Below are positions 6,461-63,000 of a DNA stretch of 64,000 nt, one piece after another. Under the pieces are notes generated by a model. It saw only the letters and a program-made list of their open reading frames with translations, made no database searches and was not told the DNA's origin. The stretch covers positions 40,697-104,696 of the forward strand of contig CAIJXH010000004.1 in assembly GCA_903824595.1 (NCBI GenBank). The letters run 5' to 3'. Position 1 is the first letter of the stretch, and each line of letters begins with the position of its first letter. Origin of the DNA: an uncultured bacterium (GTDB taxonomy: Bacteria > Patescibacteriota > Minisyncoccia > Phycocordibacterales > UBA2100). The translations under genes and the position numbers were made by a program.

Positions 6461-6503
6461 TACGAGTCTTTTGTACCATACAACCACCCACCCCACCACT
6501 GCT

Positions 6504-15990: not shown

Positions 15991-18040
15991 TTTCTTTTAT
16001 GACAACGGGAACAATGTCACCGATCTGTACGGCATCGGTTATTTTGCCAATTCGGAATGGCGCAATCTCTGATACATGCACCAAGCCGTCGGCATTTGCT
16101 CCAATTTTCACAAACGCACCAAAGTCGAGCAAGCGTACCACCGGTCCCTCGAAACGGTCACCCACCATGTATTCGCGCGTGAGATCTTCCACCTCCTTGA
16201 GCGCTGCTTCCGCCGTGCCCTTGCTGCCGGTAATGAAGATGGTTCCGTCTTCTTCAATCGTGATGTCGTCGCACTTGGTACGCTCGCGGATACCGTTGAT
16301 CGTTTTGCCGCCAGGACCGATGACGAGTCCGATCTGATCGACTTTCACGTGCGTTGTGAGGATTTTTGGCGCACGCGGCGAAATATCGGCACGCGGCGCG
16401 GGGATCGCTTTCGTGATAACGTCAAGAATCTGGAGACGCGCTTTTTTCGCCTGCGCAAACGCCTGCGAGAGCACGAGGAGCGGCACACCTTCTACCTTTA
16501 CGTCCATCTGCACGCCCGTTACGCCTTCTGACGTACCTGCAACCTTGAAATCCATATCGCCATGATGGTCTTCTGGACCTTGGATGTCGGTGAGAACTTT
16601 GTACTGCTTTGAAGCCGCGTCCGACATCATACCCATCGCGATACCAGCCACAGGACGCGTGATCGGTACGCCCGCATCCATGAGCGCGAGCGTCCCTGCA
16701 CATACCGTTGCCATTGAAGTGGATCCATTTGACGCAAGACATTCCGAGACGATGCGGATGGTGTATGGGAAAACATCTTTCGTCGGCAATACCGAGCGCA
16801 GTGATTTTTCCGCGAGCGCACCATGCCCAATCATACGGCGATTCATGCCACCCACACGACCCGTTTCTCCCACGGAGAACGGCGGGAAGTTGTAGTGCAA
16901 CATGAACGTCTTTTTTGTCTCCTGAAATTCGATCGTATCGAGAAGCTGTGCGTCTCCAGGACCGCCCAAGGTAAGCGCAGCCAAGACGTGTGTTTGTCCG
17001 CGGAAGAAAAGTCCTGTGCCGTGGATCACTGGCGAGATGCCGCCTGCTTGTGCCGAGAGCTGTCGAATCTCATCAAAGGCGCGACCGTCCACGCGCTTGC
17101 CTTCTTTGATCGCAATATCGTGCACATACTCATCCATTTTCTGCTCGTACAAATCGCCGACGATTGAGGGCGAAGCCGTTGGAAATTTTTCGAGTGCGGC
17201 CTTCACCCATTCCTGTTTCCAGCCGGTGATGTCATTTTTCGCAATGAGACCGTTCGATGATTTCATTTTCGGCTCTACCAATTCCGCAAACGCTGCTTTC
17301 AGCTCATCGCTCGCTTCCGGCGTCTTGAAATCAATCTTCTTTTTACCCATCTCGGCGACGATTTTCGCCTGCCACACCTGGATTTTTTCTATTTCTTCGC
17401 TTGCTTTTGCGAGCGCTTTTTCAAGCACGTCCTCGCCCACTTCGCGAGAGTTTACCTCGATCATGTTGATCATGCCGTCTTTGCCGCAAACCGTGAGATC
17501 AATCTTGGCACGGGGCGGCAATTCTTCGCTGCGCTGCGCATACGTGGGCATGACGATCAGCTCGGGATTTTCTTCGTCGAGTCCGATACGGATTGCCGAC
17601 ACAGGACCGTTCCACGGTATGTTGGACGTGGCAAGCGCGAGTGACGCCGCGTTGACCGCGAGAATGTCGTTGTCGTACTCTTCCATCGAGAGCACCGTAA
17701 TGATCACTTGCACGTCGCGCTTGAGTCCTTTTGGAAAGAGCGGGCGGATCGTACGATCGACAATACGACCAGAGAGCACCGCTTCATCCGATGGACGACC
17801 TTCGCGGCGCATGAAACGGCTTCCGAGAATCGCGCCTGCGGCATAAAATTTCTCCTCGTATTCCACCGAGAGAGGAAAATAATCAAGATTCGACTCTTTA
17901 CTCCCCATTACGGCAGTCGCCAAAACAGCACTGTTGCCATACCGCACCAACACCGACCCGTTTGCCTGATCCGCCCACTCATTGAATTCAGCGGATAATT
18001 CTTTCCCCGCAATATCGAGGGAAAACACTTTTTTTTCCAT
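15845..18040 (-). CDS. pnp: Polyribonucleotide nucleotidyltransferase (PNPase).
   Basis: Two RNase PH-like domains plus C-terminal KH and S1 domains (GGKTINGIRE...; MVGDRFEGPVVRLLDFGAFVKI). Start at MEKKVF. Confidence 0.9.
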   Translation of the reverse strand: MEKKVFSLDIAGKELSAEFNEWADQANGSVLVRYGNSAVLATAVMGSKESNLDYFPLSVEYEEKFYAAGAILGSRFMRREGRPSDEAVLSGRIVDRTIRPLFPKGLKRDVQVIITVLSMEEYDNDILAVNAASLALATSNIPWNGPVSAIRIGLDEENPELIVMPTYAQRSEELPPRAKIDLTVCGKDGMINMIEVNSREVGEDVLEKALAKASEEIEKIQVWQAKIVAEMGKKKIDFKTPEASDELKAAFAELVEPKMKSSNGLIAKNDITGWKQEWVKAALEKFPTASPSIVGDLYEQKMDEYVHDIAIKEGKRVDGRAFDEIRQLSAQAGGISPVIHGTGLFFRGQTHVLAALTLGGPGDAQLLDTIEFQETKKTFMLHYNFPPFSVGETGRVGGMNRRMIGHGALAEKSLRSVLPTKDVFPYTIRIVSECLASNGSTSMATVCAGTLALMDAGVPITRPVAGIAMGMMSDAASKQYKVLTDIQGPEDHHGDMDFKVAGTSEGVTGVQMDVKVEGVPLLVLSQAFAQAKKARLQILDVITKAIPAPRADISPRAPKILTTHVKVDQIGLVIGPGGKTINGIRERTKCDDITIEEDGTIFITGSKGTAEAALKEVEDLTREYMVGDRFEGPVVRLLDFGAFVKIGANADGLVHVSEIAPFRIGKITDAVQIGDIVPVVIKEIDEKGRYNLSIKAADPEWAARKGLTPDDSGGGHDHARHTGEKSFRRRI

Positions 18041-31827: not shown

Positions 31828-32139
31828 TCAAGCGATTCCCAAGTACGCGTTTCTAAAGACAAGCAGCTCTTGAGCGATCCGCTCTTCGAGATCGGGAATT
31901 GTGGTTTTGCAAAAAGCTTGCACGTCTTCTTCTTTGCCACTATCGAGCAGCGTCTCAAATTCTTCATGCTTGTCGGCTGGCATCTCGGCAACAATCATCG
32001 CATTGATCCGATCATGCACGCGCACAGCAAGATCAGACTCGAGCTGCGCTTTTACATCGACATCCATTTCGAGCTGATCGATACCCTGCTCGGCGAGAAG
32101 CTTTCTGACAAACACGTGTACATTTTCGTCTGGATTCAT
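31828..32139 (-). CDS. Small acidic hypothetical protein immediately upstream (co-transcribed) of the giant protein.
   Basis: 103-aa ORF whose stop abuts the giant ORF start (4-nt gap). Confidence 0.4.
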   Translation of the reverse strand: MNPDENVHVFVRKLLAEQGIDQLEMDVDVKAQLESDLAVRVHDRINAMIVAEMPADKHEEFETLLDSGKEEDVQAFCKTTIPDLEERIAQELLVFRNAYLGIA

Positions 32140-32289
32140 ACGTTATTCATTTTTATATAAACTCATAAAAATCACGAGAGCGACCTGTGACACAGGATAG
32201 CACCCCCCCCAATTTCAACAACGCAATTCTTCACACCTTGCTCCGCGAAAAATGCAAACCCGCCCGACAAGTGGTATATTCTTCCCTAT

Positions 32290-32362
32290 CCGCCCGTAGC
32301 TCAGTCGGTAGAGCAGCTCCCTTTTAAGGAGACGGTCGTTGGTTCGATTCCAACCGGGCGGA
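32290..32362 (+). tRNA. tRNA-Lys (anticodon TTT). 3'-CCA not encoded.
   Basis: Acceptor CCGCCCG/CGGGCGG, D-arm GCTCAGTCGGTAGAGC, anticodon stem-loop CTCC-CTTTTAA-GGAG, T-arm GTTGGTTCGATTCCAAC. Confidence 0.75.
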
Positions 32363-32433
32363 CAATCAGGAGCGAAGCGGATGATTGTCCGCCCGAGCAG
32401 GGTGCCTGCGCACCCTGCGTGTTGGAATCGAAG
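32352..32433. repeat. Inverted partial copy of the tRNA-Lys 3' half (T-arm + acceptor strand) with an inserted 9-bp-stem hairpin. Forms a 14-bp hairpin with the tRNA's own 3' end.
   Basis: cgggcggacaatca...tgattgtccgcccg; gttggaatcgaa is the revcomp of the T-arm ttcgattccaac; internal GCAGGGTGC/GCACCCTGC hairpin. Confidence 0.6.
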
Positions 32434-32451
32434 CCCGGAACTATTTCTAGT

Positions 32452-33390
32452 TTATTTTTTGTTGATCAATCCACCAACGGCAACAAGTAAATCTTTTGCC
32501 GAAGCCAAACTTGATTTCACCGACTCGATGAGTTTACTCACCAGAGCAAGACTTGCCGTAGCAATGCCGATGACAGATTGCGGCTGATTTGGAACACTAC
32601 CCGTTGATACGATTACACCCGATTGAGCAGTTCCTGCTGATGACACGCTTGTGGCTCCTGACAACGGACTTGTTTGAGATGATGCCCCATAATCAGACGG
32701 CATACTGTAATTGAGCATCGACGTCGAGAGCACCGAGGATACCGTCGCGGGCGCGGCGGCGGTAACGACAGACGTCGCGACAGTCGATACCGTCGTAGAA
32801 GAAACCGCAACACGTGAGGCGGTTGACCCTGATAATCCTCCCGATAACGAAGACAAAAGACTCGACACCGCACTGTTGGCATCAGATGCCGCTGATGAGC
32901 TATTGAGTAACGCGCTAGAACCAGAAACGTTTGCCGTGCTTCCAAGAAGTGTGCTTGCCACGCTATCGGCAAGAGGTTGGGGTCCGCCAAACGCCTGTAC
33001 CACCGCGTTGTTGGCATCGTTGGCGCTCGATCCAGAAAGACCGCCGCCGCTCAAACCCATAGCCAGCACACCTGCGCCGACCACATACGAAAGACCGAGA
33101 CAAAATTGTGGAAACGCGCAAATGCCAATCACTCCGAGCGGATCGTAACATGGAAGCTCTGGGCAAAACGGCGGAGTTTGTATTTCTGGATCCATTTGAC
33201 ACACGCACTGCGCATCTGCCACCGTACTCGCCGCCCCTCCCGCTGCACCAGAACTAACGCTAGTCATTGCCGCATCACCACCAGTCACGAAATTGCCACC
33301 ACCCACTAATGTAGGATTATACTGTGCGCATGTAATCATGGGCATCCCCACAAGCAAAAGCAGTGCGATGAATCGATGCGTCATACTCAA
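32452..33390 (-). CDS. Secreted Ser/Gly/Ala/Thr-rich low-complexity protein (hypothetical).
   Basis: Signal peptide MSMTHRFIALLLLVGMPMITCA, extreme S/G/A/T bias. Confidence 0.45.
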   Translation of the reverse strand: MSMTHRFIALLLLVGMPMITCAQYNPTLVGGGNFVTGGDAAMTSVSSGAAGGAASTVADAQCVCQMDPEIQTPPFCPELPCYDPLGVIGICAFPQFCLGLSYVVGAGVLAMGLSGGGLSGSSANDANNAVVQAFGGPQPLADSVASTLLGSTANVSGSSALLNSSSAASDANSAVSSLLSSLSGGLSGSTASRVAVSSTTVSTVATSVVTAAAPATVSSVLSTSMLNYSMPSDYGASSQTSPLSGATSVSSAGTAQSGVIVSTGSVPNQPQSVIGIATASLALVSKLIESVKSSLASAKDLLVAVGGLINKK

Positions 33391-34841
33391 ATCGCCAAAT
33401 CAACCTCCGTACTATCGGTAATCGTCGTCCCGTCGAGCGTCGTGCATGTTGCGGTAAATGTAGTAGCATCGGTGATAGGAACAGTCGATGCGCCACCCGA
33501 AAGTGTCGTTTCGTGAAAACTCCCGTCCGACGATGTCACCACGCATGATGCCGTATCTTTTGAATTCCAAAATATTGAGGTACGTCCCGAGAGCGCGACG
33601 TGGGTAGGCGAAGCCCATATGACAATCTCTGGATGCAGCCCTGTAGGAGTCGTGGTGGCAGTTGGCTTCGCGACGATTCTCTTGCGCGCGATAGATGGAG
33701 TGGTCGTCGCAGAGGAATCCCCCACGCGGTAGCCGCCCCATGAACACAGTCCGTCAAAAAATGAAGGAGGAATGACGAAAGAAATAATGGAGTTTGCCCA
33801 CGGTCGCCACTGACACAAACTGCCAATAAATCCTTTGGGAGTATCGCTCAATGTATCGCCGCCATAAAATCCAGCCACTTCGGTATTTGCATCAAGATCG
33901 CGCGAATTGGCAACAATAGTACCGCCTAGTTTCGTATATACAATCGAACCCGTGAGCTTGGAAACCACCGATGTGGTGCCGATGGCGCCCGCGGACACTC
34001 GCACTGCCGGCTGACCATTGGTGGTTGTCGCATCTTCTGCCGGAAGCCCCAACAAACTATCGCTCACCGAGCTCGCGTCGGATCCCGTGTCTGTATATTG
34101 TGAAAGATAGTCACTCGCGCCAGAGCTTGCGTCGACAAGATCGCTCGACACAGTCGTCGTGTCCAGACCTCCCAACAAATCGGACGACACGCCTCCCGTG
34201 CCTCCAGGGACATAGTAAGCGCACGGGTCTGCCGATGGCACCGACACGGCATAGTACGACGAGCATCCCGATTGAATGTCGGCGTAGGGATTTGATCCAT
34301 ATCCGCTCGTATCGTTACTTCCTTTCGACCCACTTCCGCTGAACAACGACATGAGTTGCGACGCGGCGACAGAACCAATGATTTGTCCGATGGTGCCACT
34401 AGAACCGCCCAAACCGAGAGAATCGAGAAAACTAAATCCAACAGCATGACACGTGAGTGGCGCCACGCATTCTCCCCACACTTTGCCTCCCGGCATCGTT
34501 TGACCACACGGACACAGGTGCATGTTTGCTTTTGGTCCTGCCGGCGATGACACACATCCACCGTTTCCTTCAATAAATCCACATGGACACTTTATATTTA
34601 CAACGGCACACTCCACATTTGCCGCCTGTTGGGCTGCTGTATCAATAGCTTGGCTCGCCGCAGCACTACTTGCGGCATCTCCCGCCGCAGCAGCAGGTGC
34701 TTGGGCTGCATTACTTACTCCTGGTACATATGTATATTGTTTGATGTCTACACTACTGATGAAAGGACTTGTGTCCGCAGCCCCTACAGTAGGAGGAAAA
34801 ATCATCATCAAAAAAAACAACACGCATATACGCATCCACAT
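33387..34841 (-). CDS. Secreted Gly/Ser/Thr-rich protein with conserved C-terminal ~80-aa module (hypothetical).
   Basis: Signal peptide MWMRICVLFFLMMIFPPTVGA. C-terminus (...WNSKDTASCVVTSS...TTFTATCTTLDG...) is shared with ORF 6504..8477. Confidence 0.45.
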   Translation of the reverse strand: MWMRICVLFFLMMIFPPTVGAADTSPFISSVDIKQYTYVPGVSNAAQAPAAAAGDAASSAAASQAIDTAAQQAANVECAVVNIKCPCGFIEGNGGCVSSPAGPKANMHLCPCGQTMPGGKVWGECVAPLTCHAVGFSFLDSLGLGGSSGTIGQIIGSVAASQLMSLFSGSGSKGSNDTSGYGSNPYADIQSGCSSYYAVSVPSADPCAYYVPGGTGGVSSDLLGGLDTTTVSSDLVDASSGASDYLSQYTDTGSDASSVSDSLLGLPAEDATTTNGQPAVRVSAGAIGTTSVVSKLTGSIVYTKLGGTIVANSRDLDANTEVAGFYGGDTLSDTPKGFIGSLCQWRPWANSIISFVIPPSFFDGLCSWGGYRVGDSSATTTPSIARKRIVAKPTATTTPTGLHPEIVIWASPTHVALSGRTSIFWNSKDTASCVVTSSDGSFHETTLSGGASTVPITDATTFTATCTTLDGTTITDSTEVDLAI

Positions 34842-34885
34842 ATCTTCATGCTACAAGACACAGGGCTTTCCGCAACGTACAAACA

Positions 34886-35524
34886 TTAGGCTTTGTTGAT
34901 ACCCAAAACATACCGTTCCAGCGCGTATTCAAGATCGCATCCGCGACGTCGTGCTTCATGCGGCAGCTCGGCGAGGGAGGCAATGAGGCGGGAGGCGCGA
35001 CCCCGCTCCGTGGGTCGCGACTTGAGGAACATGTCTTTCGCACCCCAAAAGAGCACCCCGTGAATCGCCTCTGGCACGTCGCCGCGAGCAAGTGCGCGCT
35101 GGTATTCCACCCAGAGCGTCTTTTTGTCGCCACGCTTGAGCGCATCCGCCAAAACAAAAATGCCACTGTCTTTTTTCTTTCCACCCGGCAGATCAAACAC
35201 TTCTATCTTCTCCGCATACTTCCCCACCGTTTTTTTCGTCACCGCATCCATCTTTTCTTCGAGAATGAAGAATTCATCGGGCGACGATTTCATCACGGGC
35301 ATCATGCCAAGGACGGTCCTTGATAAGTCGTCGTTGCACAGTACGCCGTCCAAGACCACCGCCCATTGCTCGCCAAACATTCCCGCGCCTTGCAATCCAG
35401 CGCGCACATCATCGAGAGAATGTGCATCGGTAATGCGCACAATTTTCAGTCCGCTTTTTTCCACCGCCGCATTCATCGCCGCGCGCGACTTCTCCCGATC
35501 GGTGCCTGTGTAGACATACAACAT
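34886..35524 (-). CDS. Possible DNA polymerase III delta subunit (HolA-like), short.
   Basis: N-terminal LYVYTGTD... and overall helical clamp-loader-like composition. Weak. Confidence 0.35.
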   Translation of the reverse strand: MLYVYTGTDREKSRAAMNAAVEKSGLKIVRITDAHSLDDVRAGLQGAGMFGEQWAVVLDGVLCNDDLSRTVLGMMPVMKSSPDEFFILEEKMDAVTKKTVGKYAEKIEVFDLPGGKKKDSGIFVLADALKRGDKKTLWVEYQRALARGDVPEAIHGVLFWGAKDMFLKSRPTERGRASRLIASLAELPHEARRRGCDLEYALERYVLGINKA

Positions 35525-35565
35525 ACCTCCATCATACCGCATCACATTCCCGCACGAAAAAAGAA

Positions 35566-35595
35566 AACCGCCTCCGAGGAGGCGGTTGAGTTTCG
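35566..35595 (-). terminator. Intrinsic terminator (minus strand) downstream of the small membrane protein gene 35667..36041.
   Basis: AACCGCCTCC-gag-GAGGCGGTT perfect stem followed on the minus strand by TTTTCTTTTTT. Confidence 0.55.
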
Positions 35596-35666
35596 CGAGG
35601 TAAGACAGCCAGCGAGAAGATATCAGATTTCTTTTTGAAAATCAAATTTATTACTAGCTACTTCGA

Positions 35667-36041
35667 TCAAACTCGCGCTCTTACCATCGCTGGTATGCTG
35701 TAGAAAGACACGATTCCCGTGCCAATCCACAGCCACGAAACCCACGACCCCACTCTACATACCATCACCACTCCTGTGATGGTCATGACTGTGCCCGCCA
35801 TAAGAGCGCATGTCATGAAAATCATAAACCGGAGGAAAATTTCACATTCACACCCGCCTATCCATGTTTCCATGGATTTCATTTCTAGATAGATGACCGC
35901 CGCTGACGCGACACTGCCAAACATCCACCAATACAAAAACCATGTAATTCCGCTTTGCGGAAGAACAAATACTCCACCGAGTGACCCGAGGATCACTTCC
36001 GCGACGACAAATGACACAAGTCCGCTCATCAAGCCCTCCAC
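35667..36041 (-). CDS. Small polytopic membrane protein (hypothetical).
   Basis: 124-aa ORF, 3-4 TM segments. Confidence 0.35.
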   Translation of the reverse strand: MEGLMSGLVSFVVAEVILGSLGGVFVLPQSGITWFLYWWMFGSVASAAVIYLEMKSMETWIGGCECEIFLRFMIFMTCALMAGTVMTITGVVMVCRVGSWVSWLWIGTGIVSFYSIPAMVRARV

Positions 36042-36134
36042 AGTTACCCATTGAAACTAAATACACTATGCCACGTATGCAATCATCTTGCAATCTTCCC
36101 CGCATCCATCCTAGAGGCGACACCTCTAGGATTT

Positions 36135-38522
36135 TCAGAATCTTGTCATCTCCCCCCAATTTTTCCCCACTGCAATCTCGGCGACGATGGGCACGCCGCC
36201 GAGCAGGGCGGGTGCGACGACGGATTCCATGATGCCGCGCAGCTCGCGTGCGATTGGTTCGGCTTCATTCTCCGCGACTTCGTAGACGAGTTCGTCGTGC
36301 ACTTGGAGAAGGAGTTTCGCTTTGTCGCGCCAGTCATTTTTTTCTATCAACGCATCGGTCGCTACCATCGCAAGCTTGATGATGTCGGCTTGCGTGCCTT
36401 GGATCGGCGCGTTGGTCGCCATACGTTCGGCTTGCGCACGCATGGTGGGCAACGCAGATGTGAGCGCAGGAAAATAGCGACGACGACCGAAAAGTGTCTC
36501 GGTGTAGCCGAGGCGCGCCGCGTCTTGTTTCGTCTTCTCGATGTATTTCTTCACACCAGAAAACCGCTCAAAATACTGCGCAAGAAAATCCGCCGCCTCC
36601 GCGCGGGTCACTTCCGCTCCCAAATTCGCGCGGAGCGCGTTGACACCCATGCCGTAGAGGATACCGAAGTTGATCACCTTGGCACGACGGCGCATTTCGT
36701 AGTCAACCTTCTCGTGTGGCACACCAAACACGCCAGATGCGACCGCCGTGTGCACGTCGCCACCCTCCTTGAACGTGTGAATCAGCGTCTCGTCGCCCGA
36801 AAGCCCCGCCGCGATGCGAAGCTCGATTTGCGAGTAATCAATCGCCGCGAACAGCTTGCCCTCGGGCGCGACAAACGCGCGGCGGATTTTTTTGCCGTGC
36901 TCGGTTTTCACGGGAATGTTCTGAAGATTTGGATTCTGGCTCGCCATGCGCCCTGTCGTCGTCCCCGCCTGCAAAAATTCCGCGTGCAACCTGCCATCGC
37001 TTGCCACGAGCCCGGGGATTTTTTCGATGTAGGTGGAGAGCAGTTTCTGCAGCTCGCGATACGCGAGCACATCGGCGATGATCGGATGCTGATCGCTTAT
37101 CTTGGCTAATTCTTCTTCGCGCGTGGTACGCGCGCCGGTTGCCGTTTTCTTTTGTTTTTCCGGCACGATTTTGAGCTCGTCGTACAGCACAACACCGAGC
37201 TGCTTGGGAGAATTGATGTTGAAATCATGCCCTGCATGCGCGACGATCTTCCCAACCGCATTACCAAGCTCTTTACCATACTCTTTTGCGAGCGTCGCAA
37301 GATAGGCAGTGTCGATCGCTACGCCGGTTGCGTTCATCCGCTCCACTACCGAAATAAGAGGTTTCTCGATGTCCTCGTACACTGCCGCGAGTCGCCCTGT
37401 CTTGTGTAGTTCCGCAAAGAGATTCTTGCGCGCCGTGGCAAAATCGTTCGCATGCCCATCGCGCAAAATATCGTCGAGCACCGGACTGGTCGTATCGGAA
37501 TGCAAAAGCCAAAGCGCGATCGCCGTTTCCTTCTGCTCGCGCGCATCAATCTCCTCCCTCATTACTGACTGCGGCTCCTGCGGCACGCCGGATGAGCGTT
37601 CCACGGCGGCGAACACGCGGCTCTTGAGCGAACCGAATTCCAGCTCTTCGCACAAAGCGATGATCGTGTCGACATGCTCACTCATACGCCACGAATGATC
37701 GGGCAGTGAGAATGAAATTGGCGCATCGGTGCGTATGGTAGCGAGATGTTTGGAAAGTTTCGCTGCCTCCTCGCCTTCGCGGATTTTATCCGCCATCTTT
37801 CCTTTCACACCCGACTCTTCGAGCGCCTTTGGATCGGCGTTGATCGCGCGGTACATATCTTCGATCGATCCGAATATCCCAATGAGCTCTTCGGCGGTCT
37901 TCTCACCTACGCCCTTGATGCCGGGGATATTGTCGGAAGGATCGCCGCGAAGCGCCTTGTAATCCACTACATGCTCCGGTCCAAAACCGTATCGTTCGCG
38001 CACACGATCAGCATCATAAAGAATCGTATCCGCCAAACCTTTGCGAAGCGTGTACACTCGCGCACGATCCGACACCAATTGCAGTGCATCGAGATCGCCC
38101 GTCGCAATGACTGATTCAATGTCGGCGCGATCTTTGAGCGCATGCACGATCGTCCCGATGCAGTCGTCTGCCTCAAACCCCGGTGCGGAGTACACAGGAA
38201 TGCCAAACGCCGTGAAGATCTCGGGCGCTTTCTGAAGCTGCGCGATGAGCTCTGGCTCGGCTTTCGCGCGCGTACCTTTGTAGTCTTCAAACACCTCGTG
38301 CCGCATCGTCTTCCCCGGCAGATCGCGACACGCCACCACATAGTCGGGCTTGAGATCGTCGATGATTTTCAGGAGCATGGAGACGAGTCCGTAGAGCGCA
38401 CCCGTCGGCTCGCCTTTAGATGTAGAAAAATCCGGCACCGCATGGTACGCGCGATGCAGAATCGCGTGCGAGTCGAGGATGACGAGGCGTTTGGTGTCAG
38501 TGCGTTTGTTAGTTGATTTCAT
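36135..38522 (-). CDS. polA: DNA polymerase I (5'-3' exonuclease + polymerase domains).
   Basis: N-terminal 5'-nuclease motifs (LVILDSHAILHRAYHA, GIPGIKGVGEKTA). C-terminal Pol A motifs (DYSQIELR, RRRAKVINFGILYG, QVHDELV). Confidence 0.9.
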   Translation of the reverse strand: MKSTNKRTDTKRLVILDSHAILHRAYHAVPDFSTSKGEPTGALYGLVSMLLKIIDDLKPDYVVACRDLPGKTMRHEVFEDYKGTRAKAEPELIAQLQKAPEIFTAFGIPVYSAPGFEADDCIGTIVHALKDRADIESVIATGDLDALQLVSDRARVYTLRKGLADTILYDADRVRERYGFGPEHVVDYKALRGDPSDNIPGIKGVGEKTAEELIGIFGSIEDMYRAINADPKALEESGVKGKMADKIREGEEAAKLSKHLATIRTDAPISFSLPDHSWRMSEHVDTIIALCEELEFGSLKSRVFAAVERSSGVPQEPQSVMREEIDAREQKETAIALWLLHSDTTSPVLDDILRDGHANDFATARKNLFAELHKTGRLAAVYEDIEKPLISVVERMNATGVAIDTAYLATLAKEYGKELGNAVGKIVAHAGHDFNINSPKQLGVVLYDELKIVPEKQKKTATGARTTREEELAKISDQHPIIADVLAYRELQKLLSTYIEKIPGLVASDGRLHAEFLQAGTTTGRMASQNPNLQNIPVKTEHGKKIRRAFVAPEGKLFAAIDYSQIELRIAAGLSGDETLIHTFKEGGDVHTAVASGVFGVPHEKVDYEMRRRAKVINFGILYGMGVNALRANLGAEVTRAEAADFLAQYFERFSGVKKYIEKTKQDAARLGYTETLFGRRRYFPALTSALPTMRAQAERMATNAPIQGTQADIIKLAMVATDALIEKNDWRDKAKLLLQVHDELVYEVAENEAEPIARELRGIMESVVAPALLGGVPIVAEIAVGKNWGEMTRF

Positions 38523-39012
38523 ACGAGAACGATCGCACAAACTCATCGAGCGTGTCGAGTGTCACGTACAGTGTACCAGGCGGCAATGCTTCACTCACCC
38601 TCTCCGGCCATTCGATGAGAATGAGATTGCCCGGATCGGCGAGTAATTCTGCCCAACCGAGCTTTTTCAATTCATGCGCGCCTTCGAGGCGATACGCGTC
38701 GACGTGCACGAGACGATCAAAAGATTGCCCTGCCGCGCGAGATTCCGCGCCGAGGACATTGTTCGAGCGAAGCGAGTCCCGCAGGCGCGGAATCTCGCGC
38801 GGCAGGGCATAGACTTTTTGTATGACAAACGTGGGACTCACGACCACCTCTTCCACCCCGAGCGCTCGCGCCACATGCTGCGTGAAGGTGGTCTTCCCCG
38901 CACCCAAATCGCCCGAGAGCGCGACCACCGTCGCCCGCTCCCCGCGCGCAAGTCGCGCGAGCAATGCTTCTGCTTCGGAAGCAAGATCGTCGTGATGGAC
39001 TCGTTTCTGCAT
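38509..39012 (-). CDS. tsaE: tRNA threonylcarbamoyladenosine biosynthesis protein TsaE.
   Basis: VVALSGDLGAGKTTF...SPTFVIQKVY...HVDAYRLE...LIEW. Start at MQKRVHH; the track ORF extends further as an unlikely N-terminal tail. Confidence 0.75.
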   Translation of the reverse strand: MQKRVHHDDLASEAEALLARLARGERATVVALSGDLGAGKTTFTQHVARALGVEEVVVSPTFVIQKVYALPREIPRLRDSLRSNNVLGAESRAAGQSFDRLVHVDAYRLEGAHELKKLGWAELLADPGNLILIEWPERVSEALPPGTLYVTLDTLDEFVRSFSYEIN

Positions 39013-39045
39013 GCGAGCAGTGTAGCGCAAAAAAGAAGCGGGCGC

Positions 39046-39080
39046 CTTCGGCGCCCGCTTCTTTTTTATATCATTCAAAA
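39046..39080. terminator. Strong bidirectional intrinsic terminator between rpsG and tsaE.
   Basis: GAAGCGGGCGCC-ttcg-GCGCCCGCTTC with A-run upstream and TTTTTTAT downstream. Confidence 0.6.
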
Positions 39081-39082
39081 CA

Positions 39083-39544
39083 TTACCACGCGAAGTGGGC
39101 AAACGCTTTGTTGGCTTCTGCCATCCTATGAGTCGTTTCTTTCTTGGTGACAGCGGCGCCTTCACCCTTGTGAGCGGCTTTGATTTCGGCGAGGAGTGAT
39201 TCGTGCATCGGTTTGCCCTTGGTGCCTTCTGCAGCATCAACGATCCAACGCAAACCAAGCGCCAAACGACGCTCCGGACGTACTTCGCGAGGAACTTGGT
39301 AATTTGCACCACCCACGCGACGCGAACGAACCTCGACGGTTGGCGACGCCTTATCAAGCGCTTCTTCGAGAATCACGAGCGGATCACCTTCTTTTTTTAG
39401 CTCATCCATCACCTTGTATACAATTTTTGTGGCGGTATCTTTCTTGCCACGTTCCATCACGTAGTTGATGAGCTTGGACACCTTCACCGAGCCATACACA
39501 GCATCTGGCGAAGGCATATTACGATTTTTTACGGGGCGACGCAT
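39083..39544 (-). CDS. rpsG: 30S ribosomal protein S7.
   Basis: ...VEVRSRRVGGANYQVP...LRWIV... canonical S7 sequence. Confidence 0.9.
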   Translation of the reverse strand: MRRPVKNRNMPSPDAVYGSVKVSKLINYVMERGKKDTATKIVYKVMDELKKEGDPLVILEEALDKASPTVEVRSRRVGGANYQVPREVRPERRLALGLRWIVDAAEGTKGKPMHESLLAEIKAAHKGEGAAVTKKETTHRMAEANKAFAHFAW

Positions 39545-39565
39545 AGGATTTTAGATTGTTTTACA

Positions 39566-39979
39566 TTATTTCGCCGCCTTCGGTTTCTTCGCTCCATAGA
39601 GCGAACGACCACGACGACGTTTCTCTATACCGGCAGTATCGAGCTTGCCACGGACGATTGTATAGCGCAAGCCGATGTCTTTTACGCGGCCACCGCGCAC
39701 TAAAACGACGGAGTGCTCCTGCAAGTTGTGCCCCTCTCCCGGAATGTACGCCGTGATTTCCATACCGTTGGTGAGACGCACGCGGGCGATTTTACGAATG
39801 GCGGAGTTTGGCTTGCGGGGCGTCTTGGTGGTAACGCGCGTACACACACCGCGCTTGAAAGGCGCAGGATAGAACGACGGACGGTTTTTGAGCGTATTGA
39901 AACCGCGCGAAAGCGCGATGGTCTTGGTGCGCCACGTCTTCTGTGTGCGACCTTTGCGAGCAAGTTGATTGATAGTTGA
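39566..39979 (-). CDS. rpsL: 30S ribosomal protein S12.
   Basis: [58 protein letters not shown]. Start at MSTINQL. Confidence 0.9.
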
Positions 39980-40257
39980 CATGATTGACAATGAAAAATC
40001 CCCATGAGGGTACGCGGAGCATACTATCAATCCATATTTCACGCAAGCTTCTCGCCAGACGGATCCTAAAAAGCTAGTGCACGTCGGTTATGCACGTGCG
40101 CGCGTAGGGAGAGCAAAGCTTGTAGTGCTGTCCTGTACTTTCGTAACGATATGCACTCATGTCGGCTGGAGGCAGCGCAACATCGGACATTTGAATATCT
40201 GAAGCAACAATACTCCAATCTGCAGCAAGTTTAGATAATGTCGTCCCAAAAAATCGT

Positions 40258-40276
40258 CCGCAGGTTTAACCTGCGG
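40258..40276. repeat. REP-like palindrome copy 1 (CCGCAGGTTTAACCTGCGG).
   Basis: Exact 19-nt hairpin-forming repeat, 13 nt upstream of the HuH transposase start. Confidence 0.8.
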
Positions 40277-40289
40277 AATTGGTGTTAGA

Positions 40290-40985
40290 ATGGATAGCAT
40301 GTCTACCCGACCACCCATGGCGATTGGCGAATGGTACCACTGCTACACTCGCGGGGTCGACAAGCGAAAAGTATTTGAATCGCAGGAAGATTATGATCGT
40401 TTTCTGGTGCATCTTTACGTCGCCAATGGAACGCGAAATATTCGCGTATCCGATATGCGCGACACGCGACTTAAGAGGGTTTTGGAGGATGAATCGCTCG
40501 ATCGAGGTCATCCGATTGTTGAAATTGGAGCGTACTCGCTCATGCCAACCCATGTTCATTTTCTGTTGCGGGAAATCAGAGACGGCGGTATTGCGCTTTT
40601 CATGCAAAAGACCTTCACCGGGTATACGATGTATTTCAATAACAAGAACGAGCGCACTGGGGCGCTTTTTTCCGGCACGTTCAAATCGAAACACGTAAAC
40701 GAAGATCGGTATCTGAAACAAGTCATTCCCTACATACTCCTCAACCCCGTGGAATTGTTCTATCCCGACTGGAAGAACGGCATCGGCGATATTGATTCCG
40801 TGGAGAAAAAATTGCTCGCGTACCCCTACTCAAGTTTGCAAGAGTTTCAGAGTGTTAGCATCGAACGCCCGCATAAAAAAATCGTGAACGGCTCCTTTGA
40901 AATGTATTACGAGCAACTCCCCACACTCTCACAAATGCTCAGTGACGCGCAAGAGTATTATCGGGAACGCCGTCCGCAGGTTTAA
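40290..40985 (+). mobile_element. IS200/IS605-family HuH (Y1) transposase of the REP-associated (RAYT, TnpA_REP) type.
   Basis: EWYHCYTRG...YSLMPTHVHFLL (HuH motif) and C-terminal Tyr-containing helix. 231 aa. Flanked by identical REP palindromes; its stop codon TAA is the loop of REP copy 2. Confidence 0.75.
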
Positions 40986-40993
40986 CCTGCGGA
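40975..40993. repeat. REP-like palindrome copy 2.
   Basis: Exact repeat; encodes the transposase C-terminus RPQV* (stop lies in the hairpin loop). Confidence 0.8.
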
Positions 40994-41071
40994 AGCTGAA
41001 AACTCTCCATGTTTTACTATCTATCATAAAACTACGACCTGGAACTTTCGTTCCAGGTCGCCTCCAATCTC

Positions 41072-41674
41072 TCAATCAGAGAGAGGAGCTAGTTTCCTCA
41101 ACACATCGAGGTCGTCTTCAATATCCCATCCGTGTTCACGCAGCCCTTCCGCGATTCGGATGACCAACTCGTGATCCATCAATTCAGACAACCCCGAGAA
41201 CGACAGAATGATCCACTCGGATATTCGACCCTCACCATGACGCGCGCACACGGTAATTGCACCGGCATATTTTTCAGTCGCCCGATCCCGCGATTGACAG
41301 GATGCTCGATGTTGCTCATTGAAAAACCCTCCATATAGGCGCAGAGCTTTTTCCGTCGCAAATCGGATATATTTTTCCATTTTGCCCCGGTTTACTCCAT
41401 CAAAACAACATGCGAACAAGGGCTCTGGGGTAGTGATCGAACCTCGATTGCATGGCACTGGGGTCACATGGAATACCTGCAAACAACCACCCTTACCTTG
41501 TTCTGTCTCGTTTCCTGCGACCAATTTAACCAGAGCTTGCTCGGCAACGTCTCGTACAAGACGAGACCGTTCTTCAGTGAGGCGCATATCCATCTCCTCC
41601 AAATCACAAAATGCCCAACCTCCACAGCTGGAGATTTCTCCAGCAACAATATCGCATAACGGCACATGGGTCAA
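41072..41674 (-). CDS. Hypothetical protein located between REP copies 2 and 3.
   Basis: 200-aa ORF, no recognisable motif. Confidence 0.35.
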   Translation of the reverse strand: MTHVPLCDIVAGEISSCGGWAFCDLEEMDMRLTEERSRLVRDVAEQALVKLVAGNETEQGKGGCLQVFHVTPVPCNRGSITTPEPLFACCFDGVNRGKMEKYIRFATEKALRLYGGFFNEQHRASCQSRDRATEKYAGAITVCARHGEGRISEWIILSFSGLSELMDHELVIRIAEGLREHGWDIEDDLDVLRKLAPLSD

Positions 41675-41687
41675 AACTACGAATCCT

Positions 41688-41706
41688 TTTCCCGCAGGTT
41701 TAACCT
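41688..41706. repeat. REP-like palindrome copy 3.
   Basis: Exact repeat. Confidence 0.8.
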
Positions 41707-41721
41707 GCGGATTTTGTTCAA

Positions 41722-41841
41722 CTTACTACCACTCAATCTCCTTCTGCCCGTGCTCTTTCAGGTACGCATTCGCCTTTGAAAAGGGTTTGGATCCGAAGAA
41801 ACCGGAGTGGGCGGAAAAGGGCGACGGGTGCGGCGATTCGA
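41722..41841 (-). pseudogene. Diverged duplicate of the ung 3' end (fragment encoding ...[39 protein letters not shown]).
   Basis: ~65 nt almost identical (ggtttggatccgaagaaaccggagtgggcggaaaagggcgacgg(g/a)tgcggcgattcgatgacga) to 43362..43425 inside ung, then ~55 nt of diverged but alignable sequence including a stop codon. Confidence 0.65.
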
Positions 41842-41855
41842 TGACGAAAGGAGTG

Positions 41856-43196
41856 TCAGTAGATCGGGACACAATTCGAGTCAAATTGAGATAAGTCGAC
41901 AGTCTGATTATTCCAGATCTTCAAGTCACCAGATCTCGGAAGACAGCAGTTACGACGCATAGTATTCGATGGATTGCTCTCCACGCGTGCCCGCTCTCGA
42001 CAACTTACTTGCCACTGGATGGAACCGACAAAATGGGCTAAGCAGTAATGCTCACCAGCTTGCCAATCGGACCAGGTAGCGTTTGCAAGATTATTTTCTT
42101 TAAATATACAGAGTGTTGGATCATTATTCTGAGTTGCTTTAAATGTTCGATTGCGAGAGACACATCTTATATAGTACCTCTGTGCATTCTTCATATTCAC
42201 CTCCATATCCTCGTTATCCATGTTATCAGCATCAATAATCGATACCGCAGGGTTGTTTTGAGGTACATCCTGTACTTGATCCCACCCATCTTTCATTATT
42301 ATCGTCGCCGATGGGATAACTTCGAGACCCGTCACGCCAGGATAAAGCGCTTCACAATTTGACTGCCCCGATTGTGCAGCAGCCTGTGATTTTGAATCCT
42401 TACAATTGAGATTATATTGATTGTCTCGCAGCGTACAGTCTTTTAGATTTTGTTCATACTGCGGATCCGCCTGATCAAGACACTGGGTCAACTGCCTGCG
42501 CCCTTCCTGAACCACCACGCCCTCCGTATCTCCACCCGAAAGATAGCATAGTGATGGCAGATGTATCTTCGTAGCAATGGCAAATATGAGATCTCGTCCC
42601 CCCATTACAGGTGCGAAAGGCCCCACGATCACTACGATCATGAGTGCGGTCAGGACGGACGCGTATTGTGTGCGTCGTATCGGATACTGCGCGCCACGTA
42701 TCACTCTCGATACTAGTATCGAAAGACCCGCAAAAAGCGCTATCAGCAAGCAAGCGGCCATGTTTCTAAAAACAAATACTACTTCACCGGCAGCAGCCAT
42801 TGCTGCAATGAGAGGAAATGGAAGTCTAGTGCCGCTGCCAAGACGTACATCTACATCTGCGAGGAGGAGGAATAAACATGAAGACAATACCAGCACCAAT
42901 AGAGTTAAGAAAACTGAAACCAATCCCCCAACTGAATAAACAAGTGCATCCGATACCGGACGGGAAGTATCAGGAGATATAGAGCGTGCGACGAGGAATG
43001 GTCCGCAGAGCGCCAATATGACTAAACCAAGATAATAAACTTCCTCCCCTATTACCCGATATAAGACAAGGTGTGCGATTGTATACACTGGCAAGAAAAC
43101 AAAGATAAAAAAGAAAGTTAGCGCGCTGAAAAAAAGTATGTGTCTATATTTTTTTTTCATCAGCACAAATATAGCACGGGTGCATGCACGAGACAA
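41856..43196 (-). CDS. Polytopic membrane protein with Cys-rich C-terminal extracellular domain (hypothetical). Cargo gene between the ung 3' fragment and ung.
   Basis: 446-aa ORF, ~6 N-terminal TM helices, C-terminal domain with ~10 Cys. Confidence 0.45.
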
Positions 43197-43252
43197 ACAT
43201 GACTCCCCTGTCGCCGCGCGACGATGAATCCCGCTTTCGTCCGCAGGTCGTC

Positions 43253-43271
43253 CGCAGGTTTAACCTGCGGT
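43253..43271. repeat. REP-like palindrome copy 4 (preceded by a partial tandem half-copy gtccgcaggtc).
   Basis: Exact repeat, 30 nt downstream of the ung stop. Confidence 0.8.
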
Positions 43272-43300
43272 TTTTGATCCGATACTTGAATGTGCAAAAG

Positions 43301-43966
43301 CTACCACTCTATGGGCGCTTTCCCGTGTTTGCCGAGGTCGGTATTTGCTCTGGAGAACGGTTTGGATCCGAAGAAACCGGAGTGGGCGGAAAAGGGCGAC
43401 GGATGCGGCGATTCGATGACGAGATGGCGCGCGCGGTCGATGTGCGCGCCTTTGTGCCTCGCGTAGTTGCCCCAGAGGATGAAGACGATATGTTCGCGCT
43501 CTTCGGCAAGTTTTTGTATCGCCGCGTCGGTGAATTGTTCCCAGCCTTTGCCTTGGTGCGAGCAGGCTACGCCGGCTCGCACCGTGAGCGTCGCATTCAG
43601 AAGCAGCACACCCTGCTTCGCCCAGCGCGACAGATCGGTATCGCGACTCACCGGATGCCCGAGGTCGGATGCTAGTTCCTTGAATATATTTTGAAGCGAT
43701 GGTGGCGTCGCTACACCCGAACGCACCGCAAAACACAGCCCGTTCGCCTGTCCTTCTCCATGATACGGATCTTGCCCGAGAATCACCACTTTCACCTCAT
43801 CAAACGGACACTCATCAAATGCACGGAACACCTGCTTGGGCGGCGGAAACACTCGCGCACTCTTGTATTCCTCACGCACGAAACTCGCAAGTGATTGAAA
43901 GTACGACTGTTCGAACTCTGCCGCCAGTCTCTCTCTCCATCCTCCACTTATTTTTACTTCTACCAT
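43301..43966 (-). CDS. ung: Uracil-DNA glycosylase, family 1.
   Basis: GQDPYH (water-activating loop), [11 protein letters not shown] (Leu-intercalation/His motif). Start at [10 protein letters not shown]. Confidence 0.85.
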
Positions 43967-44031
43967 CGTATCATCGTACGACACTCGACAAATTTTGCCA
44001 TGCCAATACACCAATGCTACACTCCCCGTAT

Positions 44032-44622
44032 ATGAACACCACAGCACAAATGCTCGTGCCGATGGTCGTCGAGAAGACGTCTATGGGCGAACGGGCGTAC
44101 GATATTTATTCGCGTTTGCTCAAGGAGCGCATTGTCTTTCTCGGCGGCCCCATCGACAGCGACGTCGCCAACCTCGTCGTTGCACAGCTCTTATTCCTCG
44201 CCAGCGAAGACCCTAAGAAAGATATTTCGTTCTACATAAATTCCCCGGGCGGACACGTCTCGGCAGGACTTGCCATTCTCGACACTATGAATCACATCCA
44301 GCCCGCAGTTTCTACGGTATGCGTTGGCATTGCCGCTTCTATGGGTGCCGTGTTGCTTTCTGCGGGCGAAAAAGGTAAGCGATTTGTGTTGCCCAATGCC
44401 GAAGTGATGATCCACCAACCATCGGGCGGCGCGGAAGGACAGGCGACCGATATCGAAATAACCGCCAAGCACATCATCGCCACACGCGCCCGTCTCAACA
44501 AAATCCTTGCAAAAAACACATCCCAGAAACTCGACAAGATAGAACAAGACGTTGATCGCGACTTTTTCATGACTGCCGAAGAGGCAGTTACATACGGCAT
44601 TGTGGATAGCGTGCTCGTATAA
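44032..44622 (+). CDS. clpP: ATP-dependent Clp protease proteolytic subunit.
   Basis: [20 protein letters not shown], catalytic Ser in GIAASMGA, His in MIHQP. Confidence 0.9.
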
Positions 44623-49111: not shown

Positions 49112-49166
49112 GCCGTATATACTATCATTGTTGCGCTCGCGCTACCACCCCCATGTGTATTACGAA

Positions 49167-49286
49167 GTGCCTATCCCCTCACGACATGTTCGACGAGGTC
49201 TTTGCAGCGCGACGGCGCGAAACAGAGGGATTTTTCAGCAGAAAAATCCCGACCTCGGAGAATCGTGTCGTGAGGGGATAGGCACC
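49167..49286. mobile_element. MITE-like palindromic element copy 1 (120 bp; 21-bp terminal inverted repeats GTGCCTATCCCCTCACGACA; flanked by TATTACGAa / TATTACGAc).
   Basis: Near-perfect long hairpin with nested stems. A second near-identical copy at 52489..52608 has a different flanking duplication. Confidence 0.7.
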
Positions 49287-49307
49287 TATTACGACACGCG
49301 TATCCCA

Positions 49308-52435: not shown

Positions 52436-52488
52436 ATTGCCAGTATACCAAGCGTATCGACGTGCTCATGACCTGTTTGTGCGTATCA

Positions 52489-52608
52489 GTGCCTATACCC
52501 TCACGACATGTTCGACGAGGTCTTTGCAGCGCGACGGCGCGAAACAGAGGGATTTTTCAGCAGAAAAATCCCGACCTCGGAGAATCGTGTCGTGAGGGTA
52601 TAGGCACC
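52489..52608. mobile_element. MITE-like palindromic element copy 2 (flanked by a perfect 9-bp duplication TGCGTATCA). An adjacent partial third copy lies at ~52623..52666.
   Basis: Identical to copy 1 except one compensatory pair of substitutions in the terminal stem (C->A on the left arm, G->T on the right arm). Confidence 0.7.
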
Positions 52609-52671
52609 TGCGTATCACCATCACACGACGCGTTCGACGAGGTCTTTGCAGTGCGACGACGCACAGGTTAT

Positions 52672-62962: not shown

Positions 62963-63000
62963 TAGGAAAAAACAAAGTTTATGGTACATTAGTCAGCACT

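Follow-up and report, generated by a model that had tools for sequence, protein, structure and literature searches.

Prophages, integrative and conjugative elements (ICEs), genomic islands and cis-mobilizable elements (CIMEs) insert at the 3' part of tRNA genes with a junction in the T-loop, keep the tRNA intact, leave a direct repeat of its 3' part downstream and can accumulate in tandem at one tRNA; a sublocation scheme for such tRNA-targeting integrative elements is said to have been given by Williams in 2002. A second group, comprising repetitive extragenic palindromic (REP) sequences and their hairpin-forming doublets (REPINs), Rickettsia palindromic elements (RPEs), Correia elements or Neisseria miniature insertion sequences (NEMIS) and miniature inverted-repeat transposable elements (MITEs), is short, non-coding, hairpin-forming, multicopy and variable in presence, and lies mostly at gene 3' ends, where compensatory changes preserve the hairpin. 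In this report we describe a structure behind the tRNA-Lys(UUU) gene of an uncultured Patescibacteria member, in a stretch of 64,000 nt of contig CAIJXH010000004.1 (the window), where the 3' half of the tRNA is followed by its own inverted, hairpin-interrupted copy. We read positions 32364-32444, with a probability of roughly 0.55, as a truncated, core-less and decayed copy of a small non-coding insertion element common in Patescibacteria, a non-autonomous hairpin element.

Intact long-type copies of this element consist of a spacer, a loop motif, an antispacer, a hairpin-split antisense arm, a ~90-nt core and a direct repeat, in the same orientation as the host gene, which is usually a tRNA. 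With the tRNA-targeting integrative elements the family shares all the traits listed above, including tandem accretion, seen in one comparison locus (L003). Unlike them, its units are only 130-250 nt long and have neither integrase nor open reading frame (ORF), one design serves 34 isoacceptors (among the matches listed) as well as protein genes, and each unit has, unlike att sites, a hairpin-split antisense copy of the target. The family also shares the listed traits of the palindromic repeats, and the likeness extends to the reduced, symbiont-like host genomes and, for RPE, to an in-frame insertion in a coding gene (tsaE). Unlike REP, REPIN and MITE, the arms match the 3' end of each host gene and do not form terminal inverted repeats of fixed sequence, 7-75 nt of the target 3' part are duplicated, and a conserved multi-helix core is carried; unlike the case of REPIN, no REP-associated tyrosine transposase (RAYT) or other transposase was found in the neighbourhoods of the elements. 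The family is filed among the small non-autonomous insertion elements, while lacking the integrase of tRNA-integrating elements and the fixed terminal repeats of REPIN, RPE and MITE.

Results

The tRNA-Lys gene, which matches the Rfam tRNA family at 32290-32362 with 69.6 bits, is followed by two arms that are exact reverse complements of its 3' part (Table 1). The sequence CGGGCGGACAATCA, 14 nt covering the acceptor 3' strand, the discriminator and 6 nt of trailer, returns inverted as TGATTGTCCGCCCG, and TTCGATTCCAAC, 12 nt covering the T-loop and the 3' T-stem strand, returns as GTTGGAATCGAA. Together, 26 consecutive nt (32343-32368) have a perfect reverse complement that begins 19 nt past the tRNA and is split by 25 nt (32396-32420) precisely at the acceptor/T-stem junction; the split holds an exact 9-bp hairpin of GCAGGGTGC and GCACCCTGC with a CTGC loop. 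The preliminary description of this locus had noted the complement of the acceptor 3' strand with 6 further nt and the 9-bp stem between the arms, both of which are exact. It had called the second arm a complement of the T-arm, which holds for the T-loop and the 3' T-stem strand, not for the T-arm as a whole. Neither arm occurs in the 64-kb window beyond its own pair, the hairpin sequence occurs there once, and in the entire window only 7 inverted repeats reach 13 nt or more within 150 nt. No comparable inverted copy was found at the other two tRNAs of the window (Ser and Arg).

Folding of the RNA from 32290 to 32470, as the preliminary description had suggested, gave -84 kcal/mol against -56.6 +/- 4.4 for shuffled sequences (z = -6.2; 0 of 200 shuffles as stable). 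A stable fold between convergent genes, where termination is needed, together with a weak AT hairpin and T-run at 32440-32461, might be taken for an intrinsic terminator or processing hairpin, or for a palindrome that arose once, by template switching, in this lineage. We regard such a purely local origin as scarcely credible. A scan of 32100-32600 returned 0 terminator-like sites, because the strong stems have no adjoining T-run: the 14-bp, 9-bp and 12-bp stems run into GAGC, GTGT and GCCC, respectively, and the T-run at 32455-32460 lies ~22 nt past the last of them. Moreover, the same module, loop motif and covarying hairpin recur in distant genomes together with a conserved core. The earlier suggestion of a processing or termination structure is thus unsupported as far as a simple terminator is concerned, since a hairpin with T-run is lacking and the covariation fits a multi-helix element and not a single stem.

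Loci and contigs pulled from genomes, metagenome-assembled genomes (MAGs) and metagenomes for comparison carry L-numbers. A scan of one genome per species with the last 22 nt of tRNA-Lys gave 19 loci, nearly all in Patescibacteria MAGs. In two of these, L016 and L003 (Saccharibacteria MAGs), the tRNA is followed by the same module, i.e. a loop with GAGCRARAGCGA, the anti-acceptor arm, the hairpin and GTTGGAATCGAA. At the equivalent position the loop motif reads GAGCAAAGCGA in L016 and GAGCGAGAGCGA in L003, and for example GAACGAAGTGA among many long-type copies from metagenomes, while the anti-acceptor arm reads GCCGCCCG and GTCGCCC in the two MAGs. The strands of the hairpin have changed together (GCAATGTGC/GCACATTGC in L016, with a compensatory variant in L003 too), and many metagenome copies have ..GTGCCTGCGCAC.. 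or a CUGC-loop hairpin before the arm. Spacer and antispacer vary elsewhere yet stay complementary (CTTG/CAAG, CATG/CATG, CAGTCGC/GCGACTG, CAAAAG/CTTTTG, ACAC/GTGT). In both MAGs the module runs on for ~100 nt into the ~90-nt structured core; in L003 it is closed by GATTCCAACCGGGCGGA, a direct repeat of the tRNA 3' part, and two tandem units with three repeat copies are present.

The window aligns with L016 and L003 through the spacer, the loop motif, the anti-acceptor arm, the hairpin, the anti-T arm and ~10 nt of the first core helix. The homology stops at 32444, 8 nt before the stop codon (32452-32454) of a convergent ORF (32452-33390, minus strand). An unfiltered search of the whole window with R1, a covariance model of the conserved ~87-nt core, found no core, the best match (12.5 bits, E = 0.28) lying elsewhere in the window, and a direct repeat of the host 3' part is absent after 32444. 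The window copy thus has four of the six family features, and since it is the core and the direct repeat that are missing, it is a truncated derivative and not a full member.

Among relatives the site is variably occupied, as follows from the downstream gene uppP, which is common to L009, L005 and L016. It is empty in L009, L186 and others, carries short-type units in L184 and L005 and long-type units in L016 and L003, and holds the remnant in the window; this is the opposite of one structure at every tRNA-Lys, which according to the preliminary description would have made a mobile element unnecessary. In the short-type units (L005, L008, L010, L012, L017) the last 3-5 nt of the tRNA and the spacer pair with the antispacer across a terminator-like hairpin, and the same conserved region as in the long-type units follows; RNAalifold on these five units gave compensatory changes in 29 of 50 predicted pairs. 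The closest PolA relative of the window organism has 79% identity, and placement is near Kaiserbacteria/Paceibacteria. A relative with 74% PolA identity has no tRNA-Lys near polA, and a search for syntenic relatives with the DUF5663 neighbour returned the query alone. In L184 (68% PolA identity) a short-type unit with intact core stands behind tRNA-Lys and a unit of the second core class (see below) behind tRNA-Arg. Among Saccharibacteria species we also observed that the cassette of tRNA-Lys and element is inverted with respect to its flanks (uppP, a DoxX-like gene and spoU) between L003/L017 and L016/L005/L009.

The recurrence is not limited to tRNA-Lys. A pattern derived from the core picked out at least 120 metagenome loci, and among the matches listed the core lies 36-130 nt behind a tRNA on the same strand in 85 loci, representing 34 isoacceptors and 16 amino acids. 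The inverted tRNA-half motif, for which the preliminary description had suggested a search at other tRNAs, is therefore widespread. Further copies stand behind the end of rpsI or behind the last ~75 nt of topA, with arms that match those genes. For topA, this terminal stretch is present twice with only ~80% DNA identity, yet in L142, by reading of the sequence, both versions encode nearly the same peptide, so that one seems to derive from another lineage.

The layout is constant: the host gene 3' part, one or more hairpins, a gene-specific reverse-complement arm, the core and a second, direct copy of the 3' part. In intact elements the anti-T arm directly precedes the core, and for the 16 nt before the core the median exact complement upstream was 10 nt, compared with 5.1 nt for shuffled arms (104 copies). 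Direct repeats exceeded the shuffled controls in 36 of 92 copies, with lengths of 13-54 nt; they begin at a fixed offset of 15-16 nt past the core motif, corresponding in tRNAs to position ~56 in the T-loop. Truncation or mutation is frequent in the downstream copies, and it is the upstream copy that serves as the gene end.

The core itself (~90 nt, 80 sequences in the alignment) has a two-domain structure with 92.8% of cells paired. Its covariation score is 0.624, whereas shuffles gave 0.208 and slid partners no more than 0.145. R1 finds at least 147 cores (121 + 26) in the at least 120 metagenome loci listed, a single locus holding as many as 4-5 cores or arrays, and a further 9 in the genome loci; L003, L101, L151 and L167 contain tandem arrays. 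Cores occur on both strands within single loci, each behind its own gene, and an orientation tied to the replication strand was rejected on this ground. Mean core identity was 0.690 for the same isoacceptor and 0.689 for different ones, and the nearest neighbour had the same isoacceptor in 5 of 83 cases; with no association in core similarity, the idea of element lineages tied to given tRNAs was rejected. Kissing between the CUGC hairpin loop and a core GCAG loop was dropped, as no covariation across loci was seen by eye.

The platform of arm and repeat is shared by at least three further cores that are unrelated to this one. A second conserved core, ..GGGGTCGGGAAA..TTTCCCGTGGAG..GGAAAACCGTGGGTTTCC.., was observed on it behind several tRNAs (Table 1), and further classes with a GAATCTGTAAGATTC hairpin in L081, L095, L145 and L012; neither the second class nor the GAATCTGTAAGATTC class has an Rfam match.

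Scans of the window and 8 loci with Rfam at gathering thresholds gave only tRNA, and permissive Rfam 15 scans of the window module, the R1 core and two other core classes gave nothing credible. Group I and group II intron families had no match in the window, the 8 loci or the permissive scans, the core being ~90 nt with two hairpin domains. An intron whose true exon is the downstream repeat was rejected, since the downstream copies are often truncated or mutated, the intact tRNA end is upstream and a catalytic core is lacking. The group I tRNA introns of Patescibacteria described in PMC13011429 are placed at anticodon-loop position 35/36 and are unrelated to the element. Within 3 kb on either side of the at least 120 cores listed, and in the 19 genome loci, no recurrent ORF family was found; an associated protein was rejected after 1276 flanking ORFs had clustered into syntenic housekeeping genes and spurious ORFs. 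The literature searched contained no description of such an element, and the family is absent from Rfam 15 and undescribed in that literature.

Table 1. Coordinates of the features described in the text (window positions, or comparison loci where L-numbers are given)
Feature	Position	Strand	Basis or remark
tRNA-Lys(UUU) gene, no encoded CCA	32290-32363	+	ARAGORN (ttt); Rfam RF00005
tRNA 3' part matched by the downstream arms ("sense" partner), from T-loop through 3' T-stem strand and acceptor 3' strand to discriminator	32343-32362	+	inverted repeats
Trailer/spacer CAATCA	32363-32368	+	pairs with antispacer TGATTG, 32382-32387
Apical loop GGAGCGAAGCGGA	32369-32381	+	carries recurrent motif GARCGAAGYGA; contains GCGAAGC
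Antispacer and anti-acceptor arm, TGATTG-TCCGCCCG	32382-32395	+	reverse complement of 32355-32368, 14 nt, 100%
Module hairpin GCAGGGTGC-CTGC-GCACCCTGC, at the acceptor/T-stem junction of the antisense arm	32397-32418	+	strands 32397-32405 and 32410-32418
Anti-T arm GTTGGAATCGAA	32421-32432	+	reverse complement of 32343-32354
Vestige of first core helix, GC-CCGGAAC-TAT	32433-32444	+	alignment; intact elements read CG-GCGGAGC-GAT
Cores at protein gene ends	topA 3' end: L142, L162, L173; rpsI stop codon: L077/L083, L148, L157		
Second core class	L173:11975-12130; L014:3398-3500; L017:6457-6560; L184 after tRNA-Arg (16929-17040); L060 after tRNA-Tyr		
Extended -10-like boxes	32273-32281; 6475-6483 (-); 62981-62989		end ~8-12 nt before mature tRNA 5' end
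tsaE ORF	38509-39357	-	
84-nt palindrome in tsaE	38726-38809		26-bp perfect inverted repeat, 32-nt centre
18-bp perfect palindrome upstream of conserved tsaE part	39029-39067		3-nt loop
~122-nt intergenic element, two copies	49166-49287; 52488-52609		20-nt perfect inverted repeats as ends

Discussion

The repeats that run from the T-loop to the 3' end, and their tandem accretion in L003, are hallmarks of tRNA-integrating elements, and in the close strain represented by contig L180 the sequence diverges exactly after the T-stem and has a different acceptor 3' strand. These points would be expected if the structure were the decayed attL end of an integrase-mediated island or prophage that once resided in tRNA-Lys, with the inverted repeat as a core-type binding palindrome. 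Near the site, however, there is no second copy of the tRNA 3' end; the sole near-copy in the window (44239-44254) lies within the clpP ORF, and an island at 32364-44253 bounded by it was rejected, as the interval holds core genes. No integrase or recombinase was found near the site, whose neighbours are DUF5663, polA, tsaE and three large ORFs without Pfam match, and no integrase is near the related loci, which are flanked by conserved core genes (polA, holA, spoU and uppP). The units are far from island size at 130-250 nt, and the same design with matched arms recurs at the 34 isoacceptors. In viral contigs the tRNA 3' 22-mer had 0 matches, while the arm and core patterns gave only chance matches, mostly in coding sequence; the element has no phage link. 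An attL end is therefore a highly improbable explanation. The preliminary description had considered a decayed inverted att site, which is right in so far as the tRNA 3' part is indeed repeated directly in intact relatives; the inverted copy, however, belongs to the element itself as a conserved component, and an integrase is lacking. Its other suggestion, a tRNA-derived mini-element, came closest to the evidence, the structure being the 5' module of a small element that recurs behind many tRNAs.

How such an element would move can be sketched from the order of its parts. It would be selfish, non-autonomous hairpin DNA comparable to MITE, REPIN or RPE, and for insertion its arm would pair with the 3' part of the target. 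The insertion would duplicate this 3' part, which would leave the host gene intact. Since core similarity is unrelated to the host tRNA, targets would change often compared with core divergence and arms would be re-matched after each move. Quasi-palindrome correction, a mutational process in which a hairpin serves as template, may keep the arms matched, starting from GGAATCGAA, a complement of the T-loop that is close to universal. The order of parts seen here would result from a folded single-strand intermediate of the kind known from CTX-phi or attC, as it would from a retro-type route with staggered nicks. In the genome studied here a later deletion would have taken the core and the direct repeat, and the remainder, a stable three-way hairpin into which the tRNA 3' half is drawn, is probably without a function of its own and tolerated in the tRNA-Lys trailer. 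The odd structure in the window would then be explained as the scar of an element and not as a regulatory device.

The comparison with the attP(+) hairpin of CTX-phi, an integrative mobile element exploiting Xer (IMEX), and with integron attC sites is instructive, as there too sense and inverted target-like copies can fold into a duplex that mimics the site, and after integration the order is repeat, inverted copy, cargo, repeat. Unlike these systems, the family has no dif-like or attC consensus and uses many target genes, and our analysis gave no sign of dependence on Xer or IntI or of a single-stranded intermediate. A segment next to a scaffold and complementary to the insertion flank is also found in group I introns (P1/P10), group II introns (exon- and intron-binding sequences, EBS/IBS), IS110 bridge RNAs and IS200/605 guides, and the guide-like arm is split around a hairpin or stem as in the loops of the IS110 bridge RNA. 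Unlike such mobile ribozymes and guide RNAs, the element has no group I or II catalytic core, no Rfam intron match and no recombinase gene, its arms are up to 26 nt long and pair with a single strand, and it is the upstream copy of the repeat, not the downstream one, that is the functional gene end.

The retro-type route can be developed into a full alternative, similar to a short interspersed nuclear element (SINE), where an RNA with arm, core and tRNA-like 3' end anneals at a nicked T-loop and serves as template for a reverse transcriptase acting in trans, with a staggered cleavage of the second strand that yields a duplication of the tRNA 3' part of variable length. The fixed right junction (15-16 nt after the core motif, T-loop ~56) with repeats of 13-54 nt, as in target-site duplications, the host gene that is always intact, the core similarity uncoupled from target identity, and the ability of arm and repeat to close the core into an end resembling a tRNA minihelix are all consistent with it. 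We consider it improbable, as no reverse transcriptase was found near any copy, the differences between the topA repeat copies are mainly synonymous, which does not resemble a fresh duplication, and the route alone does not explain perfect antisense arms that include the trailer. Group II introns are, moreover, reported absent from Patescibacteria in PMC13011429.

Several observations weigh against a selfish insertion element and its scar. No insertion intermediate, enzyme, or recent pair of insertion and empty site in near-identical genomes was observed, so that the insertion mechanism, like the matching of arms to new targets, is inferred. The window copy is identical in three other assemblies, and therefore bears no sign of ongoing decay. 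The metagenome loci were chosen by the core pattern, so that the frequencies are biased. Every core checked is co-oriented with its upstream gene, and sense-strand G-U pairs outnumber A-C pairs by 73 to 40, two observations no less compatible with a transcribed RNA than with DNA. Strong conservation of the ~90-nt core across Saccharimonadia and Paceibacteria could likewise reflect a cellular RNA function rather than selfish DNA.

These last points lead to the main alternative, which we rate as unlikely, namely a cellular non-coding RNA module made from the 3' trailers of tRNAs and a few mRNAs. Pairing of the arm in cis with the 3' part of the precursor would tether, delay or steer 3' processing, or shield the 3' end; the core would bind a protein, and the window copy would be a reduced version with a remaining influence on the tRNA-Lys trailer. 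Besides the strand bias of the pairs and the constant position of the core directly behind the upstream gene on the same strand, the tandem G-A motifs and small capped hairpins of the core are typical of protein-binding RNAs, the arm follows the functional upstream copy even within the topA coding sequence, and the structure in the window is predicted to be very stable as RNA. The 3' external transcribed spacer (3'ETS) small RNAs (sRNAs) and the theta ribozymes of phages, which resemble that of hepatitis delta virus (HDV), are comparable in that a structured RNA-like element lies directly 3' of a tRNA on the same strand; unlike them, the family matches no HDV-like or other Rfam ribozyme, has an antisense arm and a direct repeat, and also follows protein genes. 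Against a trailer RNA, the terminator-like hairpin of the short-type units (A-run, stem and U-run), located between tRNA and core, should halt co-transcription, and the pairing of 26 nt of the tRNA would compete with its folding. The often degenerate downstream repeats resemble insertion scars, occupancy among relatives is patchy, several unrelated cores are interchangeable on one platform, and a hairpin with the loop motif is also inserted in tsaE, antisense and in frame.

We therefore retain the truncated insertion element as our reading of the window copy. It is possible, at less than even odds, that Patescibacteria harbour a superfamily of target-matched hairpin cassettes in which a constant platform carries one of several ~90-nt cores at the 3' ends of tRNA genes and some protein genes, with the gene end duplicated and the arms rewritten for each target; the window would then hold, besides the decayed copy, related palindromic insertions of two further kinds. 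That the family stands for either a guided integration system or an RNA class that is new is a proposal of the same tentative standing. If the target-matched cassettes are real, they would imply a new form of nucleic-acid-guided integration or a new class of cis-tethered RNA, with an enzyme acting in trans. Should the arms guide insertion, the element would be a compact, programmable cargo free of protein genes, and its partner enzyme would be of interest for genome engineering; should the cores be cellular RNAs, they would form a major class of RNA, so far unannotated and linked to tRNA expression, in a phylum to which a large share of bacterial diversity belongs. The data reveal an abundant, multicopy, structured non-coding family in the reduced genomes of the candidate phyla radiation (CPR), which targets essential genes without breaking them. 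Either way, the elements inflate "intergenic" space, produce palindromes and chimeric-looking tRNA ends in MAG assemblies, and merit annotation.

Minor observations

Contig L180 (1-391), mentioned above, is identical to window 32140-32354 upstream, up to the T-stem ..GGTTCGATTCCAAC, and then reads TAGGCGCACAAG.., an acceptor 3' strand that would mismatch the 5' acceptor strand of the tRNA. Beyond the divergence comes an AT-rich stretch and then CCTAATTGGAATCGAAC, which is its own anti-T arm. The contig ends too early to decide between a second element in the same T-loop and an assembly chimera, and it is either of the two; were it a real alternative insertion, a displaced copy of CGGGCGGA would be expected past the cargo.

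Upstream of tRNA-Lys, the sequence CCGCCCGA, the 5' acceptor strand and also the anti-acceptor arm, reappears 30 nt 5' of the gene (32260-32267), and in L009 a mini-hairpin, CACTTGCGCCCG-TATAAGAT-GCGGGCGC, ~90 nt 5' of tRNA-Lys duplicates the 5' end of the tRNA; both may be due to chance or be further scars. All three tRNAs of the window are preceded by an extended -10-like box of similar sequence, TGGTATATT (TATGGTACA in two cases), and a scan for the sigma-70 consensus, which covered 32100-32600 around tRNA-Lys, reported no promoter.

The palindrome in tsaE consists of TGCCCTGCCGCGCGAGATTCCGCGCC and GGCGCGGAATCTCGCGCGGCAGGGCA around a centre with the loop motif GAGCGAAGCGA, the same as in the tRNA-Lys module, and folds as DNA at -44.5 kcal/mol (z = -10). 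In comparison with two homologues it is an in-frame insertion of 69 nt or 23 codons in TsaE, and its arm GATTCCGCGCCGAGGACA resembles a tRNA 3' half, antisense to the gene. It is probably a transposed hairpin module similar to RPE.

Each copy of the ~122-nt intergenic element stands just past the stop of a minus-strand gene, and the two near-identical copies are one compensatory difference apart. Their ends are formed by GTGCCTATCCCCTCACGACA and TGTCGTGAGGGGATAGGCAC, and their hairpins have a CAGCAG loop and a GCGACGGCG loop, similar to the R1 core in another order. The shorter palindrome at tsaE, AAAAAAGAAGCGGGCGCC/GGCGCCCGCTTCTTTTTT, is probably a bidirectional terminator, from which it would seem that the tsaE ORF, annotated with 282 aa, has been drawn too long at the 5' end.

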